NCBI GenBank assembly: GCA_029940115.1
Contig: JAOZRQ010000004.1
Coordinates: 1-35,915 of the forward strand
Direction: 5' to 3'
DNA: 35,915 bases
From: Desulfobacterales bacterium
Lineage (GTDB): Bacteria > Desulfobacterota > Desulfobacteria > Desulfobacterales > 4be13
Made by a program: the position numbers and the translations under genes. Below, piece after piece: positions 27,827 to 35,783 of this stretch (positions are counted from its first letter, which is position 1; each line of letters starts with the position of its first letter). A model generated the notes under the pieces. The model did no database searches, was not told the DNA's origin, and saw nothing but the letters and a program-made list of their open reading frames with translations.

Positions 27827-27837
27827 ACCGCTTGATT

Positions 27838-29997
27838 ATGCACAGAAAAGATGCCACGCGGCGCACCCCATACAGAAGAACCCGCAAAAAAAAGGCCGAG
27901 GCCCCCAAGATACCCAAAATCAGACCCGGTGCCCATCCCGAACTGAAAAAGGTCTTCGGGACCGTCGGCATACCGGAGAAGACGGCTTTCACCCCTGATC
28001 CCTTCCAGATGGCCGCGGTCGAAGCCGTTGAGAAGGGGGACTGCCTCGTCACCGCACCGACCGGGGCCGGCAAGACCTGGATCGCGGAACAGGCCATCGC
28101 CCGAATCCGGGAAAAAGGGGGGAGATCCTGGTACGCGTCCCCCCTCAAAGCCCTGAGCAACTCGAAATACGCCGAGTTCTGCGAGATATTCGGCGTCAAC
28201 AACGTCGGCATTCTCACCGGCGACCGAAAGGAGAAACCCCGAGCGTCCCTGATCGTCGGAACCACGGAAATCCTGCGCAATCAGCTCTATGACGCCATGA
28301 GCCGCGGGGAGGACCTCGCGGCCGACTTCGTCATCCTCGACGAGGCCCATTTCCTCGGAGACCCCGACAGGGGCGTGGTATGGGAGGAAATCATGATCTA
28401 CCTCCCCGCCCGCATCCCCCTCCTCATGCTTTCGGCAACCATCGGAAACGCGGACCAGATCGCCGGCTGGCTCTCGGAAATGCGGGAAAAGGAATGCATC
28501 GTGGTCCAGGAGACCTGCCGACCCGTGCCCCTGTATCCGATATTCTTCCACCCTTCGGGTACCCTGCTCCCTCTCCTCTCGGAGAGCGACGAGGAGACCC
28601 AAAGCTCTCCCCGACATCCTTCATCTCGGGGGTCTCGGGGAAAGGCATCGGGGAAGCTCCACAAGAAGGTCGACGCGCACATCACCGACAAGAACCCCTC
28701 CGTGCTCGCCGCGGACCGGAGCCTGCCCCCCCTCGGCAGAATACTCGAGGTGCTGAAGTCCTTCCACCTGACCCCCGCCATCTTCTTTCTCAAGTCACGG
28801 GCCGACTGCGACCATGCCCTCAGCCTCTGCAAGACCCCTCCCCCGGATGACGACCGGAAGCAGAGGCGCAGCCTGAGAATCCGGGATCTCGCCTCGCAAA
28901 GCGGGCACATCGCCAACCATCGCCACCTCTGGGAGATCGAGAACCTCGCGGCCGCATCCCATCACAGCGGTCAGCTCCCCGCGTGGAAGCTCGTGATCGA
29001 GTCCCTCATGACCGATGGCCTCCTCGACGTGGTCTTCGCCACCTCCACCGTGGCCGCGGGTGTCAACTTCCCGGCCCGCACCATCGTGTTCCTCAACTCG
29101 GACCGGTTCAACGGCAAGGAGTTTCTCCCCCTCAGTCCCACCGAGTTTCATCAGATGACCGGAAGGGCCGGCCGCCGAGGGATGGACAAGATCGGCTTTG
29201 CGGTCGCCATTCCGGGAAGATTCATGGATGTCCGTCTCATCGCCCGGCTCACCAGCGCCTCCCCCTCCCATGTGTTGAGCCAGATCAAGATCAACTTCTC
29301 CATGGTGCTGAACCTGCTCCTCTCCCACTCTCCGGACCAGATTGAGGAGATCCTGAAAAAATCCTTTGCCACTTATATGATCGTGAAGGGGAAGCGCACC
29401 CGCAAGGCCCAGCGCCTCATCGGAAACGAGCACAGGCTCCTCTGGCAGAACTTCCTCAACCACTTCCACTTCCTCCGGGAGTCCGGATATGTCACCGAGG
29501 CCGGCGATCTCACCCCTGACGGCGTCTGGGCCTCCCAGCTTCGGGTGGATCAGCCCTTGATGATCGCCGAGGGGTTCCGGCTCGGCGTCTTTCCCGACGC
29601 GGACCCCGCCCTCCTTGCTGCCGTGATCGCCTCCCTCGTGAACGAGGAGGAGTCCAACGACCGGATCCCCAAGCGGCAGATTCCCGATGCCCTGCTCAGG
29701 ACCATGCTCCATGTCCGAAAGGGGCTCAGACCCTTTGCCAAGCAGATGATCCTGAATGGTTTCGAGCCACGGGTCCTCTTCCTCCGCCCTGCCCTCACCC
29801 TATACGCGTGGGCCATGGGGTCTGAATGGGAGGATCTGCTCGCGTTTTCCGAAATGGCCGAAGGGAACCTCGCCATGCTCATCTTTCGCACCGCCGACAA
29901 CCTCAGACACATCCGGGCCCTCGACCATGTGTTCCCAAAAGCCGCCGCCACCGCCGCCCGAGTCATCGAACAGATCATCCGGGACCCGGTCATCTGA
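27838..29997 (+). CDS. Ski2-like (HelY/Mtr4-type) DExH-box SF2 helicase with a basic N-terminal extension
   Basis: Motif I is TAPTGAGKTWIAE, motif II is ILDEAHFLGD, motif III is LSATIGN and motif VI is HQMTGRAGRRGMD. The C-terminal region has the Ski2 arch/DSHCT-like length. ATG at 27838 is preferred over the TTG at 27832. No obvious RBS. Confidence 0.85.
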   Translation: MHRKDATRRTPYRRTRKKKAEAPKIPKIRPGAHPELKKVFGTVGIPEKTAFTPDPFQMAAVEAVEKGDCLVTAPTGAGKTWIAEQAIARIREKGGRSWYASPLKALSNSKYAEFCEIFGVNNVGILTGDRKEKPRASLIVGTTEILRNQLYDAMSRGEDLAADFVILDEAHFLGDPDRGVVWEEIMIYLPARIPLLMLSATIGNADQIAGWLSEMREKECIVVQETCRPVPLYPIFFHPSGTLLPLLSESDEETQSSPRHPSSRGSRGKASGKLHKKVDAHITDKNPSVLAADRSLPPLGRILEVLKSFHLTPAIFFLKSRADCDHALSLCKTPPPDDDRKQRRSLRIRDLASQSGHIANHRHLWEIENLAAASHHSGQLPAWKLVIESLMTDGLLDVVFATSTVAAGVNFPARTIVFLNSDRFNGKEFLPLSPTEFHQMTGRAGRRGMDKIGFAVAIPGRFMDVRLIARLTSASPSHVLSQIKINFSMVLNLLLSHSPDQIEEILKKSFATYMIVKGKRTRKAQRLIGNEHRLLWQNFLNHFHFLRESGYVTEAGDLTPDGVWASQLRVDQPLMIAEGFRLGVFPDADPALLAAVIASLVNEEESNDRIPKRQIPDALLRTMLHVRKGLRPFAKQMILNGFEPRVLFLRPALTLYAWAMGSEWEDLLAFSEMAEGNLAMLIFRTADNLRHIRALDHVFPKAAATAARVIEQIIRDPVI

Positions 29998-30078
29998 AGG
30001 ATTAAGGGCTAAGGGCTAAGGGATTAAGGGTTAATCCCTAACCCCTTAACCCTTCATCCCTAACCCCTTAATCCTTCT
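29998..30078. repeat. Inverted heptamer arrays, (TAAGGGC)n and (TAACCCC)n, forming a hairpin between two convergent genes
   Basis: 'attaagggctaagggctaagggattaagggttaatccctaaccccttaacccttcatccctaaccccttaatcc'. The central stem 'agggattaa' / 'ttaatccct' has 9 bp. The right arm encodes the last residues (..KGLGMKG) and the stop of the 30046 gene. Confidence 0.85.
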
Positions 30079-31965
30079 AAGAGCCAGTTCCACAATCCGG
30101 TTGATCAGACGGGCGATGTCCCAAGTTGAGGCGGGGTCGAGTTCCGCGGCACCCAAGGCCGGGATCACCGCCTTGTCGCCGAAAATGTCATACTCCCGGG
30201 TGTGGAACGAGCGGATCGGGTCCACCCCGCGGGCATCCTCCTTCGGATGAAACAGGTAAAGGGAGATCACTGGCGACTGCCCCCCCTTCTTTCCGCTGAT
30301 GCCATGGACATAGCGCATCACCAGCATCGGAAGCTTCTCAAAGAAGACCGTGTCCGGCGGAGAGTACTTCGCGTCAAACACCGCAAGCAGACACGCGCCG
30401 GATCCGGCCCCCCGATCCTCCCGAATCTCGAAGATGTAATCCGGCACCCGCTTCGCATTGGCCCCCTTCCTGCGGTACGACTCCCACACCCACCCCTCCA
30501 CATTGAAGTGGCGATCCTCACCAGAGCCGCCATGCCTCGGGGACCATATCTCCTTCTCATAGCAAAGGGTCAGGGAGACGTGGCCTCTGCGGAACTCGTA
30601 TCGGTGGCGGGGGCGAGGAGCGAGGAGCGAGGAGTCGGGGGACGGGGCCGGTTCCTCCCCTTGCCCCTCAGCCTCACCCTGACGTCGGAACCCCGCCTTC
30701 TCAAGCCCGTCAATCAGGCGGTACAGACAGAAGTATTCATACAGCTCGTCAATCGAGCGGACCCCTGCCAAGGCCTCCTCATCGGACCAGTCCGCACTCC
30801 CCATCTGATACCAGCGGATGATCTTCTCAAAGAGCACCCGATAATGGGCATTCGCCTTGACCCAAGGGGTCATGGAGGGGGCCGACGACATCAGCCGGCC
30901 GACCGGGATCCGCTCCTCCGCGACGCTCATCAGGTAGTTGCACCGCTCCAGCATCCGGTCGCACTTCGTCTTCCGGCCCCTGAACAGTTCCCGCATGGAC
31001 GTCTTGATCTCCCTTGAGAAGCTCACATACCTCCCCGCATCCCCGTGCCGCCCCTTCCCTTCATCCGTATGCCAAGCGTCCGGATCCGGCCCTTGGGACT
31101 CGATCCGGTCACACGCCTTCCGAATCTCCACGAGAAACGTCTTGATGTTGTTCAGAAAGCTGTGCAACACCCGATTCTCATACACATCGCTGTCCTCAAC
31201 CAGTTCGCTCACCTCCAGCCGGCTCGCGGTGTAGGCCCGGTTGTCAATCACCGCGACCGCCTCGTCAGGCATGGCTGCCGGGACCAGGATGTCGAGATGG
31301 GAGAGGAGCCACTCCGCCGTGTTCGCGTCAAAGCAGTCCCCAGGCCTTGGCATCCGCACCACCCGTCGCGGCACCAGCCGGGTGCAGTGCTTTCCCAAAA
31401 GAACCGGCAGATGCCGCTCAAACAGGACCAGCCCCTCCTCGGCCTCCTTCATCAGCGTCGTCACATTCCGCCGCTGCTTTCCCGCGGACACTTGGGTCAC
31501 GCTGAAGATCGACCCCGGCAGGTCATCCATCCGGGACGCCAGATAGGAGATGATCTCCCGAAGCCGGTCCGCCGTGATCTTCCTCGCCCTCACCTCAAAG
31601 GGCCGCAGCTCGATCCAGAGCCGGCCCCCGTCCTTTCGCCTCACCTCCACATCCAACTGGCAGGAGCCAAAACAGTTCAGAAAGAAGGCCTGATATCGGT
31701 TGAACCCCCTCGACTCCGGATGCCAGAGATAGATCACCTTGTTGCTCAACCGCTTGCAATCCGACGGCGGCTTGGGCAGATCCGAAATCCAGAGCACCGG
31801 ATTCTCCATGTATGCCGGTGCCACAAGCATGAAGCAGATCTCCTCATCCTCCTGAATCCAAGCGCACGGCGCCGCCTTGGTCAGCTCCTCCTGAGGGGGG
31901 ATCTCAATCCGCTCCCCCTGCCTCGCGCCGGCCAGCACCTTGATGTAAAATCTGAAATCTTCCAT
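30046..31965 (-). CDS. McrC-like partner protein: DUF2357-like central region plus a C-terminal PD-(D/E)xK nuclease motif
   Basis: C-terminal 'VPDYIFEIRED...ACLLAVFDAKYS' (nt about 30364-30450) fits D...(D/E)xK. The gene lies 98 nt downstream of, and is co-directional with, the McrB-like NTPase. ATG at 31965 is preferred because the track start (GTG at 32019) is encoded by heptamer repeats. The start remains uncertain. Confidence 0.7.
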   Translation of the reverse strand: MEDFRFYIKVLAGARQGERIEIPPQEELTKAAPCAWIQEDEEICFMLVAPAYMENPVLWISDLPKPPSDCKRLSNKVIYLWHPESRGFNRYQAFFLNCFGSCQLDVEVRRKDGGRLWIELRPFEVRARKITADRLREIISYLASRMDDLPGSIFSVTQVSAGKQRRNVTTLMKEAEEGLVLFERHLPVLLGKHCTRLVPRRVVRMPRPGDCFDANTAEWLLSHLDILVPAAMPDEAVAVIDNRAYTASRLEVSELVEDSDVYENRVLHSFLNNIKTFLVEIRKACDRIESQGPDPDAWHTDEGKGRHGDAGRYVSFSREIKTSMRELFRGRKTKCDRMLERCNYLMSVAEERIPVGRLMSSAPSMTPWVKANAHYRVLFEKIIRWYQMGSADWSDEEALAGVRSIDELYEYFCLYRLIDGLEKAGFRRQGEAEGQGEEPAPSPDSSLLAPRPRHRYEFRRGHVSLTLCYEKEIWSPRHGGSGEDRHFNVEGWVWESYRRKGANAKRVPDYIFEIREDRGAGSGACLLAVFDAKYSPPDTVFFEKLPMLVMRYVHGISGKKGGQSPVISLYLFHPKEDARGVDPIRSFHTREYDIFGDKAVIPALGAAELDPASTWDIARLINRIVELALRRIKGLGMKG

Positions 31966-32063
31966 GATATGAAGGATGAAGGATGAAGTCTGAAGTCTGA
32001 AGGATGAAGTCTTCATCACTCATCCCTCATCTCTCATCCCTCATCCTTTCCTTTCGCCCGTTG
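31966..32063. repeat. Inverted heptamer arrays (GAAGGAT/GAAGTCT versus TCATCCC/TCATCTC) filling the spacer between the McrB-like and McrC-like genes
   Basis: 'gatatgaaggatgaaggatgaagtctgaagtctgaaggatgaagtcttcatcactcatccctcatctctcatccctcatcc' is centred on 'gaagtcttc'. Confidence 0.85.
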
Positions 32064-34469
32064 TCAGCTGAAAAATGAGTAAGAGTTGTGAGTCTGTTTC
32101 CCGGCCTCAATAATGCGGCGGAGAATCCTCGCGGAGCGATAGAGGGAGTTGTCGGTGGTCACCTCCAAGAGCTTCTCGAGCCGCCTGCCAAACCCGGTTC
32201 CGTATCCCTCGATCATCGGAAGGATGAACTGGGCCGTCGCGAAGTCAATCGCCTGGTCATTGACAAGGATGTCCCTCGCAATCGTGCAGTAACGTCTGAT
32301 GGCATAGTATTTCCTCGGACTGATCACCACAAAGGACGCGCCATCAAAGTCGGACGTCTCGGTCTGGAGAATCTCGATGATCTCCTTCACGATCTCCGCC
32401 TCCTTGCTCGCAAAATCCTCCTCATCGGAACCCGCGAAGAATGCCTGCATCCTCTCAAAGAGAAGCGCCCCGTCGGGCCTCATCCGGTTGCTGCTCAACG
32501 GATTCGAATACTCATAGCTCGGCTCCATCTGGATCACCGGAACCCGGTCGATCAGTCGGGGGGAGAGCCGCTCGGTGGTGTTGTCGTTGTTCACCGTGCC
32601 AATGAACCGCACAGATGGGCCGACATGGAGGAACCGATCCTTGTCGAGACAGCCGGTGTCGAGGTTCCGCTCCCCCTCGGGATCGCACATCCCGAGAAAG
32701 TCGGCCCAATAATGCTCAATTGGCGACAGGTTCGCCTCGTCGAGCAGCACCCAGCGGGAAAACCGGCCGACCTGCGGGTCGGTCCGGGTGAGATGGAGAA
32801 AGTCGTACAACCCGGTCCTCGCCTTCTGATATTGGCTCCGAAGCGGATTGAAATACCCGAGTATGTCCCGCTGGGACGTCCACCCCCGGGAGACCGGGAT
32901 TTTGAGCAGATTCTCCGAATTCCCCAATGCCTCCCCGAGATAATGGATCACCGACGTCTTGCCAGTGCCCGGCGGGCCGGCGAGTATGGTCAGAAAGCTC
33001 TGCTGCATGCAGATCAGCAGGTTGGCGATCTCGTCCGATGTGTAGTTTCTCCCGCACTGCTCCACCAGATATTCCCGGATTTTGTCCACAAAGTCCTTCC
33101 GATTCCCGTCAAACTCCCTCACCGCAGGCATGGCGACACCTGACTCGCCATCATCCCTCTCCTCCAATGTGTAGCTGCCGTTGAGCAGGTCCAAATACGT
33201 CTTGATCTCCGTGAGCCTCTCTTTGATGTCCTCTGCCTTCAGTCTCTTTATCTCGGTCTCGATCTTCTTCTTGTTCAGCTTCATGAATTCAATCTCTTTG
33301 TACAGGTTCTCCGCCTGTATCAGCTTCCCGATTCTCTCCTCCAACGCCCGGAGTTCCCGGGTGCGCTCCTCCTCATATCGCGTCTTCTCCTCCTTCTTCC
33401 TCTTGTCGAGCTCCTCGATCTCCCGGTTGAGCTGGTCCTTCTGGGCCCGGAGGAAATAGAGCTCCCGCCTGATCTTCACCGCCTCCTTCTCGGCCCTTTC
33501 CTCTATGTGCTTCAGATGATCCTTGAAAAACTTCTCCTTGTTGTCCTGCAAATACTGCTCCACAATCACGCGGCCCTCGGTCTCGTTGGTCAGGAAGTTG
33601 TTGATGAACGAGGCCTGCTGCACACCGGCCTCGAGTATCTTCGGCATCAGGCGGATCAGCCGGTCCCTCCGCTCCTGATCCATGCCGGTGAGGTGCTTCA
33701 GGTTTTTGATCGCCTCAAGCCACTCGGTCACGGTCTTCCGATTCAGTTTCGCTGTCCCGGATCGGAGCAGATACTTGTTCCCCCATGTCACCAGCCGGTC
33801 GTCGGAGATGTAGTCCTGCTGCTCATACGCCGCCGCCTTCAGCAGGTTGGTGTTGAACAGATACGCGACCGGCGGCCGGCTCAGGCTGCTTTTCAGGGTC
33901 TCGAACTCGATGATGTAGTGTCGCACCTCCTCGGTCCTCACCTTGAACACATGGTCGGGCCGGAGTCCGAGCAACGGCGACTGGGCCGCACTCAGCCGGA
34001 TCCCCTCGTCATCCTTTGTCCATTCAAACGGGCCATAGATGCTTGTGCCGTCGTTGACAAAGACCGAACGGTTCGGCAGGGGCCCCCCGGAACTCAGATA
34101 GGGCCGCTCCACGTCCGGCAACGGCTCCTTGATGATGGGACAGAGCTCGAATCGCTTCAGCGCCTCCGCATCCGATCCCCTCATCCAGTATTTCTCAAGA
34201 TAGTCGTTCTCTATGTATGCCTCATTCTCATCCGCACTGTAGCGGTTCACCCGGAAAAACTCATGGTCGGAAAACCGCCGGTCTATCGCCTCGTATTCGC
34301 TCGACACCCAAATCCGGCCGTTGTTCGGAAAATCGCAACGATCCGCCGGGGCATACGTGCTGTTCTCCAACTCATGGGCTATGGGTATCACAAACCCGCC
34401 GCTCGTTGAGATGGGACGGTCCTTCAACGCCAGCAAGGGCTTGAACTCATTCATCTTCGTTCTCTCCAT
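32064..34469 (-). CDS. McrB-like AAA+ (AAA_5) NTPase with a long N-terminal coiled coil and an unassigned N-terminal domain
   Basis: Walker A is ILAGPPGTGKTS (about 32953-32980) and Walker B is WVLLDEANLSPIEHYWADFL (about 32729-32750). 'RFIGTVNNDNTTERLSPRLIDRV' (about 32560-32610) is also present. The preceding K/E/R-rich heptad region runs from EERAEKEAVKIRRELYFLRAQKDQLNREIEELDKRKKEEKTRYEEERTRELRALEERIGKL to IKERLTEIKTYLDLL (about 33185-33510). ATG at 34469 has 'ggaga' 8 nt upstream. An alternative ATG is at 34454. The track start at 34538 lies in repeats. Confidence 0.8.
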   Translation of the reverse strand: MERTKMNEFKPLLALKDRPISTSGGFVIPIAHELENSTYAPADRCDFPNNGRIWVSSEYEAIDRRFSDHEFFRVNRYSADENEAYIENDYLEKYWMRGSDAEALKRFELCPIIKEPLPDVERPYLSSGGPLPNRSVFVNDGTSIYGPFEWTKDDEGIRLSAAQSPLLGLRPDHVFKVRTEEVRHYIIEFETLKSSLSRPPVAYLFNTNLLKAAAYEQQDYISDDRLVTWGNKYLLRSGTAKLNRKTVTEWLEAIKNLKHLTGMDQERRDRLIRLMPKILEAGVQQASFINNFLTNETEGRVIVEQYLQDNKEKFFKDHLKHIEERAEKEAVKIRRELYFLRAQKDQLNREIEELDKRKKEEKTRYEEERTRELRALEERIGKLIQAENLYKEIEFMKLNKKKIETEIKRLKAEDIKERLTEIKTYLDLLNGSYTLEERDDGESGVAMPAVREFDGNRKDFVDKIREYLVEQCGRNYTSDEIANLLICMQQSFLTILAGPPGTGKTSVIHYLGEALGNSENLLKIPVSRGWTSQRDILGYFNPLRSQYQKARTGLYDFLHLTRTDPQVGRFSRWVLLDEANLSPIEHYWADFLGMCDPEGERNLDTGCLDKDRFLHVGPSVRFIGTVNNDNTTERLSPRLIDRVPVIQMEPSYEYSNPLSSNRMRPDGALLFERMQAFFAGSDEEDFASKEAEIVKEIIEILQTETSDFDGASFVVISPRKYYAIRRYCTIARDILVNDQAIDFATAQFILPMIEGYGTGFGRRLEKLLEVTTDNSLYRSARILRRIIEAGKQTHNSYSFFS

Positions 34470-34486
34470 GCATGAATCTCCGTTTT

Positions 34487-34670
34487 TTGAAGGATGAAGG
34501 GATGAAGGATGAAGGATGAAGGATCCTTCACATTTCATCCTTCATCCTTCATATTTCATCCTTCACATTTCATCCTTCACATTTCATCCTTCATCCTTCA
34601 TATTTCATCCTTCATATTTCATCCTTCATATTTCATCCTTCACATTTCATCCTTCATATTTCATCCTTCT
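34487..34670. repeat. Inverted heptamer arrays: (GAAGGAT)n for 37 bp, then about 21 units of TCATCCT/TCACATT/TCATATT
   Basis: The palindromic centre is 'gaaggatccttc' at about 34515-34528. The right arm runs to 34670 and encodes the last residues (EKDEI) and the stop of the 34654 gene. Confidence 0.9.
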
Positions 34671-35355
34671 CATCAGATGCCTTGTAGATATCAATGATCT
34701 TGGTGCTTTCGATATAGTCACGGGTCTCATATTTGGTGATCCGCATCAGTTTCTTGGTGATCCTTCCCATCTTGTCTATCTGATCCTTGATTATTGAAAT
34801 GTATTCATATCGGGGATCATCCATGGTCATGTCATCCATCAGGAGCTGGGAAAACCCGAGCACGGACTGCATCGGCTGGTTGAGCTCATGGCAGACTGCG
34901 CCCGCCATTTCAAGAACCCCCTCAAGCTTCTCCTCCTCAAGCAACTTCCTCGTCAGCTCCTGTTGCGTCAGGGCCGACTTGATTCTTGCAAGCAATTCCA
35001 CTTTGTTGACCGGCTTTCTCACATAATCGGTTCCACCTGCCTCAAAGGCCTCCTGCAATGTGTGGTCATCGGTGTTCGCCGTGACAAAGACAACCGGGAT
35101 GTCCTTTGTCTCGGGCTTGCCACGAAGAATTCGGCAAACCTCATACCCGTCCATTTCGGGCATCATGATGTCGAGCAGAATCAGATCCGGAATCCCGCAC
35201 ATGTCCGTCCTTGACGTGGCGATCTCAAGGGCCTCGGATCCGCTCACGGCAACGCTGATCTCGTAAGTGCCGGCCAGTATCTCCACCAGCACCCGGATGT
35301 TCGCGGGCGCGTCGTCAACGATGAGAATGTTTGGCCTTTTCAAATTTTCACCCAT
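34654..35355 (-). CDS. Response-regulator receiver fused to a HisKA-like (DHp) domain, with no catalytic ATPase domain
   Basis: Receiver motifs: ILIVDDAPANIRVL, DLILLDIMMPEMDGYEV and DYVRKPV. The C-terminal H-box-like segment is MAGAVCHELNQPMQSVLGFSQLL. ATG at 35355 has the RBS 'ggaagga'. The track start at 35481 reads through GGGCAC repeats (GHGVGHGHGQGHG). Confidence 0.85.
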   Translation of the reverse strand: MGENLKRPNILIVDDAPANIRVLVEILAGTYEISVAVSGSEALEIATSRTDMCGIPDLILLDIMMPEMDGYEVCRILRGKPETKDIPVVFVTANTDDHTLQEAFEAGGTDYVRKPVNKVELLARIKSALTQQELTRKLLEEEKLEGVLEMAGAVCHELNQPMQSVLGFSQLLMDDMTMDDPRYEYISIIKDQIDKMGRITKKLMRITKYETRDYIESTKIIDIYKASDEKDEI

Positions 35356-35359
35356 TTTT

Positions 35360-35477
35360 CCTTCCCCGTGCCCCTGCCCGTGCCCGTGCCCGACCCCGTG
35401 CCCTGCCCCTGCCCGGTGTCGGGCAGAGGCAGGGGCACAGGCAAGGGCAGGGGAAAGGGCACGGGCAAGGGGCACGG
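35360..35477. repeat. Long imperfect palindrome of CGTGCCC/GGGCACG-type repeats between the STAS and receiver-DHp genes
   Basis: 'ccccgtgcccctgcccgtgcccgtgcccgaccccgtgccctgcccctgcccg', loop 'gtgt', then 'cgggcagaggcaggggcacaggcaagggcaggggaaagggcacgggcaaggggcacgg'. Confidence 0.85.
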
Positions 35478-35783
35478 TCATCTCGACATGATGAAGATGG
35501 TGTCCAGTTTCAGCATCTTGAACAGTTCAGAGACGGCCTCTGACATGTTTTCGATTCTTATCTCTCCTCCTCTCAGGGCGAGATCCTTGTAAAACAGCAA
35601 CAGCTTTCCAATGCCCGCGCTGCCGATGTGGGAGACCTTTCCAAAATCAAGGGTCAGTTCCTTCAGTGAGGACATGTTCAATTCACGAAAGCGGCGTTTG
35701 AGGATTTCGGATCCAGATTCATCTATCTTCCCCGCGACCACAAATTTTGCCCGCTCTCCCTCCTGAGTGATGGTCAATTCCAT
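35478..35783 (-). CDS. STAS-domain protein (SpoIIAA/RsbV-type anti-sigma-factor antagonist)
   Basis: LTLDFGKVSHIGSAGIGKLLLFYKDL follows the STAS pattern and has a candidate phospho-Ser in 'SHIGSAG'. ATG at 35783 lies 6 nt after 'ggag'. An upstream ATG at 35795 is also possible. Confidence 0.8.
   Translation of the reverse strand: MELTITQEGERAKFVVAGKIDESGSEILKRRFRELNMSSLKELTLDFGKVSHIGSAGIGKLLLFYKDLALRGGEIRIENMSEAVSELFKMLKLDTIFIMSR

Follow-up and report, generated by a model that had tools for sequence, protein, structure and literature searches.

The stretch of DNA analysed here (the window) comprises 35,915 nt of contig JAOZRQ010000004.1 from the Desulfobacterales bacterium assembly GCA_029940115.1 and carries on its minus strand a pair of adjacent genes, cnuB and cnuC, which probably form a CoCoNuT system of Type I-C. 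CoCoNuTs are a large McrBC-type branch known from comparative genomics alone, with putative reader domains and with RNA or DNA as possible targets. The upstream gene, cnuB (32064..34469), encodes an 801-aa McrB-like GTPase of the NxD type with a putative N-terminal reader module and a helical stalk. The downstream gene, cnuC (30046..31965), encodes a 639-aa McrC homologue composed of DUF2357 and a PD-DxK nuclease domain, whose motifs lie at 30439-30444 (PD) and 30367-30375 (DAK). Between them lies a spacer of 98 nt (31966..32063) made of inverted heptamer arrays.

The ATG of cnuB at 34469 is preceded at a distance of 7 nt by a Shine-Dalgarno motif read from the sequence, GGAGA (34477..34481, minus strand). 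A longer open reading frame (ORF) with its start at 34538 begins within a heptamer repeat array and this start is spurious; in seven of eight close homologues the start coincides with MERTK or falls shortly behind it. MERTK opens the translation at aa 1, and the peptides GPFEW and WLEAIK follow at aa 146 and aa 250. Five parts can be delimited in the protein: an OB-fold barrel resembling a cold-shock domain (CSD; aa 4-105, 34155..34460), a putative PUA-type barrel resembling YTH and ASCH domains (aa 106-222, 33804..34154), a basic helical neck running into the stalk (aa 223-320, 33510..33803), a helical stalk of coiled-coil type rich in E, K, R and Q (aa 321-470, 33060..33509), and an McrB-type AAA+ GTPase core with lid (aa 471-801, 32067..33059). 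From the translation, the Walker A motif was placed at 32955-32978, Walker B at 32730-32747 and the NxD motif (N627-N628-D629) at 32583-32591.

A preliminary description of the region 33511-34469, which corresponds to CnuB aa 1-319, had pointed to an N-terminal region of about 320 residues without family assignment, set apart from the NTPase by a coiled coil, and had proposed it as a possible new target-recognition module acting as a sensor. The lack of assignment was borne out and the peptides named were present. Searches of aa 1-319 against Pfam and NCBIfam matched no model, the best hit being DUF5937 with an E-value of 0.093, and a phmmer search of the whole protein against PDB sequences returned only weak Lon, AAA P-loop or coil matches, none of them in the N-terminal region.

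For structural analysis, aa 1-339 were modelled with AlphaFold2 from an alignment of 126 sequences, which gave a mean pLDDT of 91.3 and a pTM of 0.81. With these values and with the conservation described below the region is folded, and disorder or low complexity, which had been named as grounds for abandoning the proposal, are not the case. The model is beta-rich through aa 220 and helical from aa 223. Because generic helical hairpins swamped the list of structural matches obtained with VIA-align for the 1-339 model, aa 1-222 were modelled separately (pLDDT 91.5, pTM 0.85). Foldseek found no PDB match at E ≤ 0.001 for either model, and its list of weak matches was made up mostly of tandem-OB proteins (HIN-200, Teb1, exosome subunits, superantigens). 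VIA-align was used to compare the 1-222 model with 48,161 PDB representatives and, in a second pass, with the top 1000 chains of Foldseek; the first comparison split the model into two subdomains and the second agreed. In the models, aa 4-105 matched only OB, CSD and SSB folds, and aa 103-222 only YTH and ASCH domains, in at least six different proteins; for aa 223-339 there were only generic helical-hairpin matches. A nuclease reading of the second barrel was also considered, as the top named clusters found for aa 103-222 in the ESM Atlas were PD-(D/E)xK families (VRR_NUC, HSDR_N_2, PDDEXK_3 and Hjc), with scores of 0.78-0.82, under the tool's line of 0.9. It was rejected because aa 106-222 contain no conserved acidic/lysine catalytic motif.

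The separation of this region from the NTPase was likewise confirmed, with a helical stretch poor in Pro and Gly at approximately aa 321-470 preceding Walker A. Residues 313-440 consist to 45-64% of E, K, R and Q and are almost devoid of Pro and Gly, and helices are predicted to run without a break from aa 263 until the model ends at aa 338. Positions 318-507 of the family profile match designed coiled coils, Beclin-1, keratin and tropomyosin, and PADLOC yielded matches of the SMC-like models LmuB and JetC to the stalk of the family. Heptad periodicity is weak (z ≤ 2.5) and does not distinguish a true coiled coil from a single stable helix.

The GTPase part matches Pfam AAA_5 with 24.3 bits against a cut-off of 22 and carries its Walker A motif at aa 498-505. 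The family profile matches Escherichia coli McrB chains from Walker A through the signature motif with E-values of 1.6e-3 to 3.8e-3; in the best of these alignments (E 1.6e-3), profile positions 524-660 are paired with McrB 197-333, 137 positions each. G498, K504, T505, D577, E578, N627 and D629 are invariant across 54 diverse CnuB homologues. The signature T625-V-N627-N628-D629-N-T-T-E633 is of the NxD type, with V626 at the position where NxxD would need N. DEAN (577-580) is separated from N627 by 46 residues, and no helical insert is present between Walker B and NxD; this absence, seen in the equal-length alignment with McrB, argues against Type I-A.

The window's CnuC alone matches its families weakly (DUF2357, E 0.013; PDDEXK_7, E 0.24). 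Among 57 members of the CnuC family, DUF2357 was detected in 22 (best E 1.1e-12) and PDDEXK_7 in 34 (best E 2.8e-7). P508, D509, D531 and K533 are invariant, and the PD...DxK nuclease motif is intact. A weak match of CnuC profile positions 15-92 to an Ig-type domain, that of sodium channel beta-4 (E 0.054), is the sole hint at the IG-like beta-sandwich expected at the N-terminus of a Type I-C CnuC. Of the 70 loci with room for cnuC, about 66 have it directly downstream of cnuB. The two are separated by 92-270 nt in the Desulfonema clade, to which the window belongs, versus −4 to 15 nt in the majority of other clades. Tandem arrays of heptamers of the GAAGGAT and GAAATAT types and their complements are located at 34487-34670, 31966-32063 and 29998-30078; they are arranged as inverted pairs that flank cnuB on both sides and recur behind cnuC, and they lengthen the spacer between the genes in this clade.

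In order to determine how the N-terminal module is distributed, a HMMER scan with CnuB aa 1-319 was run over 1.84 billion cluster representatives (E ≤ 0.001), and the module was found in 118 proteins (clusters at 50% identity). In all 118 it occupies residues 1 to approximately 320. A Walker A motif is present in every match of at least 600 aa but one (P0120, 647 aa), and lies at residues 466-559 in matches of about 770 aa or more. The preliminary description had recommended looking for the same domain fused to other effectors; among the 118 representatives no such fusion and no other architecture bearing the module was found. Among the short matches (121-500 aa) are fragments, and two of the matches have full-length cluster mates; three of 241-307 aa (P0015, P0029 and P0145) are located on contigs of 52-847 kb and could be stand-alone readers or gene fragments.

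A scan of one genome per species gave at least 537 loci encoding a relative, of which the best 80 (L001-L080) were examined. Profiles of the OB part, the YTH-like part and the neck matched 78, 76 and 77 of these 80 loci, respectively. They come from Desulfobacterota, many Gammaproteobacteria (Yersinia, Xenorhabdus, Kluyvera, Pseudomonas, Photobacterium and Endozoicomonas among them), Betaproteobacteria, Bacteroidota, Chloroflexota, Armatimonadota and Chlorobiota. Since the architecture is the same throughout, the profiles of the parts match most loci and the pairing with cnuC is nearly constant, the module is a fixed, family-defining part of CnuB, not a cassette shuffled among effectors. Individual loci depart from the full-length form: L032 has only a 457-aa ORF matching CnuB aa 346-800, L078 a 699-aa ORF whose first approximately 360 aa gave no tblastn alignment, cnuB of L062 seems frameshifted, and the N-terminus of CnuB in L038 is highly diverged.

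The nearest neighbours in more than 60 loci have no family in common, except for a clade-specific gene treated below. No CnuH or CnuE was found beside the pair in these loci, which argues against Types II and III, and neither CnuA nor CnuD occurs as a core gene. The neighbours are mixed, with integrases, transposases and some defence genes among them. A tally of 114 neighbours of L008-L080 contains a MobA/VirD2 relaxase (L008), integrases of phage type (four), rve transposases (four) and primase/D5_N proteins, which is consistent with carriage of the pair on mobile islands in many lineages. Two of the 114 match the PADLOC models DpdE and ZorD, and two match Pfam SNF2-rel_dom with a best E-value equal to that of L057. 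Behind cnuC and in the same orientation, an SNF2-family helicase of about 1385 aa is encoded at L057:12401-16543 (an uncultured Methylomagnum metagenome-assembled genome, MAG) and at L063:12289-16455 (an uncultured proteobacterium MAG), and the DpdE/ZorD-matching neighbours are probably these two helicases. In the window itself, a Ski2-like DEAD/DSHCT helicase gene (27832-29997, plus strand) converges with cnuC. It was considered as a component of the system and rejected because none of the 80 related loci has a counterpart next to the pair; the gene is probably unrelated to the system.

Conservation of the module depends on the depth of the comparison. In nine close homologues (72-100% identity, all from Desulfobacterales), invariant positions are dense across aa 1-320, and mean pairwise identities within the close clade amount to 83% (OB part) and 85% (GTPase). 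Family-wide, the corresponding values are 21-22% for the N-terminal module versus 47% for the GTPase. The module thus evolves faster than the GTPase across the family and is about equally conserved within the close clade. Among the residues conserved family-wide are G25, F72, Y145-G146-P147-F148, D219, R267 and R270, and the YTH-like part contains the conserved aromatic residues F137, Y145, F148, Y203 and Y220.

Fold, domain order, conservation, the pairing with a DUF2357/PD-DxK partner whose nuclease motif is intact, an intact P-loop/Walker B/NxD motor and the wide, patchy distribution are the observed basis for a functional proposal that is otherwise modelled on characterized McrB systems. 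CnuB aa 1-320 would be a reader module whose neck mounts the two barrels on a long stalk ahead of the NxD GTPase. By analogy with McrBC and with the McrB of Thermococcus gammatolerans, the barrels would bind nucleic acid, either single-stranded RNA or DNA, possibly with a modified base, and binding would load or activate a GTPase hexamer. As in McrBC, the N-terminal module may select the substrate and the hexameric GTPase may be stimulated by its partner; the GTPase could in turn make the CnuC nuclease cleave the bound nucleic acid or a neighbouring one, by which invading elements would be restricted. A sensor role of the N-terminal module, as put forward in the preliminary description, is plausible by the same analogy.

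Several observations weigh against this proposal. Both barrels are acidic family-wide, with a median pI of 4.9 and only 5% exceeding pI 7. In this they differ from most YTH domains and from many OB-fold nucleic-acid binders. The acidity of the barrels detracts from a simple reading as nucleic-acid binders; of the three parts, the neck alone is basic (median pI 8.7), with conserved K/R244, R267 and R270. A sequence-level link of the second barrel to PUA families was not found either: Pfam is empty for aa 106-222, and hhalign of the profile of this part against an EVE alignment of 16 sequences gave a probability of 0.2%, compared with 100% for the positive control. ASCH (PF04266) was not detected at any locus of the 121 genomes searched in the class. 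Finally, the literature searched yielded no experiments on any CoCoNuT, and a 2026 preprint still terms these systems "predicted".

An alternative is that the barrels sense a ligand other than nucleic acid (a phage protein, peptide or small molecule, for instance), in which case the likeness to OB and PUA folds would reflect common small-barrel topologies. We regard this as unlikely, since aa 103-222 match YTH and ASCH domains of at least six proteins and no other fold, McrB homologues typically bear nucleic-acid readers at this position (YTH-like in T. gammatolerans; PMC7544203), and the neck beside the barrels is basic with R267 and R270 conserved. Nucleic-acid reading is the preferred, conditional interpretation.

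The genomic context of the Desulfonema clade bears on a further question, namely whether the pair is under regulatory control. In the window, cnuB is preceded by a gene (34654..35481, minus strand) for a protein composed of a receiver domain (REC) and a DHp domain (HisKA) without a kinase domain (Pfam Response_reg, E 1.1e-26; HisKA, E 1.1e-10). All eight loci of the clade (the window and L001-L007) have this gene immediately upstream of cnuB and in the same orientation, with 78-86% identity in L001-L007, and none of the other 73 loci, outside the clade, has such a neighbour. In most clade loci, from three taxonomic families, the order MCP, REC-PP2C-RsbW, STAS, REC-DHp, cnuB, cnuC is kept. In Desulfonema magnum the genes farther upstream differ and REC-DHp alone is retained, and the genes downstream of the pair differ between all clade loci. 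Within the order the N-terminal module occurs patchily, in 7 of 41 genomes: all five from the window's own family, the window's genome included, and two of 36 from other families of the order. The locus L002:8004-15119 (Desulfococcaceae bacterium HSG8) encodes a full-length CnuB (795 aa, 77% identity) and has no cnuC within 8 kb downstream of cnuB, where a weak nSTAND3-like ORF, an AAA_15/AAA_21 ATPase (AbiEii/OLD-type) and a 273-aa ORF of no known family are located instead.

The constant position of the REC-DHp gene suggests, from gene order, a regulatory link to cnuB, and the gene is best described as a clade-specific upstream neighbour and possible regulator. A further-reaching alternative holds that the pair of this clade is a signalling-controlled RNA-surveillance or stress module, not primarily directed against phages, which is read out via the receiver-DHp and partner-switching genes. 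This seems improbable: the REC-DHp gene in eight of eight clade loci, the order from MCP to cnuC kept in three families, an N-terminal module that equals the motor in conservation among clade members, and L002 with cnuB but without cnuC would all fit it, whereas outside the clade there is no receiver gene and the neighbours include integrases, transposases and defence genes, the nuclease motif of CnuC is intact, and conserved synteny by itself does not show co-regulation. Another, rather speculative reading, to which we give only a small chance, is that in this clade the pair has become the output of a phospho-signalling cassette (MCP, REC-PP2C-RsbW, STAS, REC-DHp, cnuB, cnuC) in which the receiver-DHp protein docks on or gates the CnuB stalk, as the REC-bearing CnuA is thought to do in Type I-B, and that a signal-regulated McrBC-like nuclease would thereby read host RNA, not phage DNA, through its acidic OB and PUA barrels.

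For further work on nucleic-acid reading by CnuB, the conserved residues G25, F72, Y145-F148, D219, R267 and R270 are candidates for mutation. The family-wide acidity of the barrels cautions against presuming simple nucleic-acid binding, and the constant receiver-DHp neighbour offers a route to asking whether such systems are regulated. With this locus, Desulfobacterales contribute a well-modelled example of Type I-C; the results leave the classification of these systems unchanged, and the finding is useful but modest.

With respect to known systems, the closest agreement is with Type I-C CoCoNuTs, in which CnuB has the order CSD-YTH-CoCo-McrB and CnuC the order IG-McrC_N-PD-DxK (Bell, Sahakyan, Makarova, Wolf and Koonin, eLife 2024, PMC11090510). 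The pair shares with them the two-gene operon, an NxD GTPase without insert between Walker B and NxD, and a CnuB in which an N-terminal OB/CSD barrel is followed by a YTH-like barrel and then by a long helical stalk. It also shares a partner directly downstream with DUF2357 and, judged by its motif, a PD-DxK site of the active type, the same weak PDB neighbours (5c0w_I and 4u8t), and a distribution centred on Gammaproteobacteria and reaching many phyla. We assign cnuBC to Type I-C with good though not full confidence, the assignment being set by domain order, motifs and partner. As cnuBC belongs to this published kind, the claim of novelty fails: the module of OB barrel, YTH-like barrel and neck has already been described computationally for Type I-C, with its domain order and structural neighbours, and the present protein is a new member, not a new kind of module, so that of the earlier interpretation the sensor reading stands as plausible and the new target-recognition module does not. 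That the module might be a truly new fold or reader class, evolutionarily unlinked to CSD or YTH, is very improbable, since the absence of Pfam, NCBIfam and PDB sequence matches and of Foldseek matches at E ≤ 0.001 is set against a domain order and structural neighbours that reproduce the published Type I-C CnuB and a large family that was within reach of the census of Bell et al.

Among defence-system models, PADLOC PDC-M26A matches the window's CnuB with an E-value of 3.2e-36, only over profile positions 152-428 and aa 301-594, with the N-terminal module excluded, and all 54 family members tested match it over stalk and GTPase (best E 9.7e-39). CnuC gave no PADLOC match at E ≤ 0.01, that of component B of PDC-M26 included.

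Type I-B CoCoNuTs, found mainly in Bacillota, consist of CnuA (PYD-CoCo-REC), CnuB (CSD-YTH-McrB) and CnuC (PMC11090510). They resemble the present system in the CSD and YTH-like reader on an NxD McrB and in the association with a REC-domain protein. Unlike in Type I-B, whose coiled coil resides on a separate CnuA with a C-terminal REC, the stalk is here fused to CnuB, which argues against this type, and the neighbouring protein consists of REC followed by a DHp hairpin. The McrB of T. gammatolerans is likewise an McrB-family motor with a YTH-like N-terminal domain (PDB 6P0G), which was shown experimentally to prefer N6mA DNA (PMC7544203); unlike CnuB, it has a canonical NxxD motif and neither an OB domain nor a coiled-coil stalk. 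No sequence similarity between the two proteins was detectable, and this McrB is absent from the top structural matches of CnuB. The E. coli McrBC system shares with cnuBC an AAA+ GTPase with an N-terminal specificity domain and a PD-(D/E)xK partner with a DUF2357-type N-terminal domain, and differs by its NxxD motif in place of the NxD of CnuB, an unrelated 5mC-binding N-terminal domain, the lack of a stalk and a shorter McrC. RNA targets are favoured by Bell et al. (PMC11090510). Beyond the published definition of Type I-C, the Desulfonema clade is distinguished by the repeat-built hairpin spacers between cnuB and cnuC and by the receiver-DHp gene that always lies upstream.

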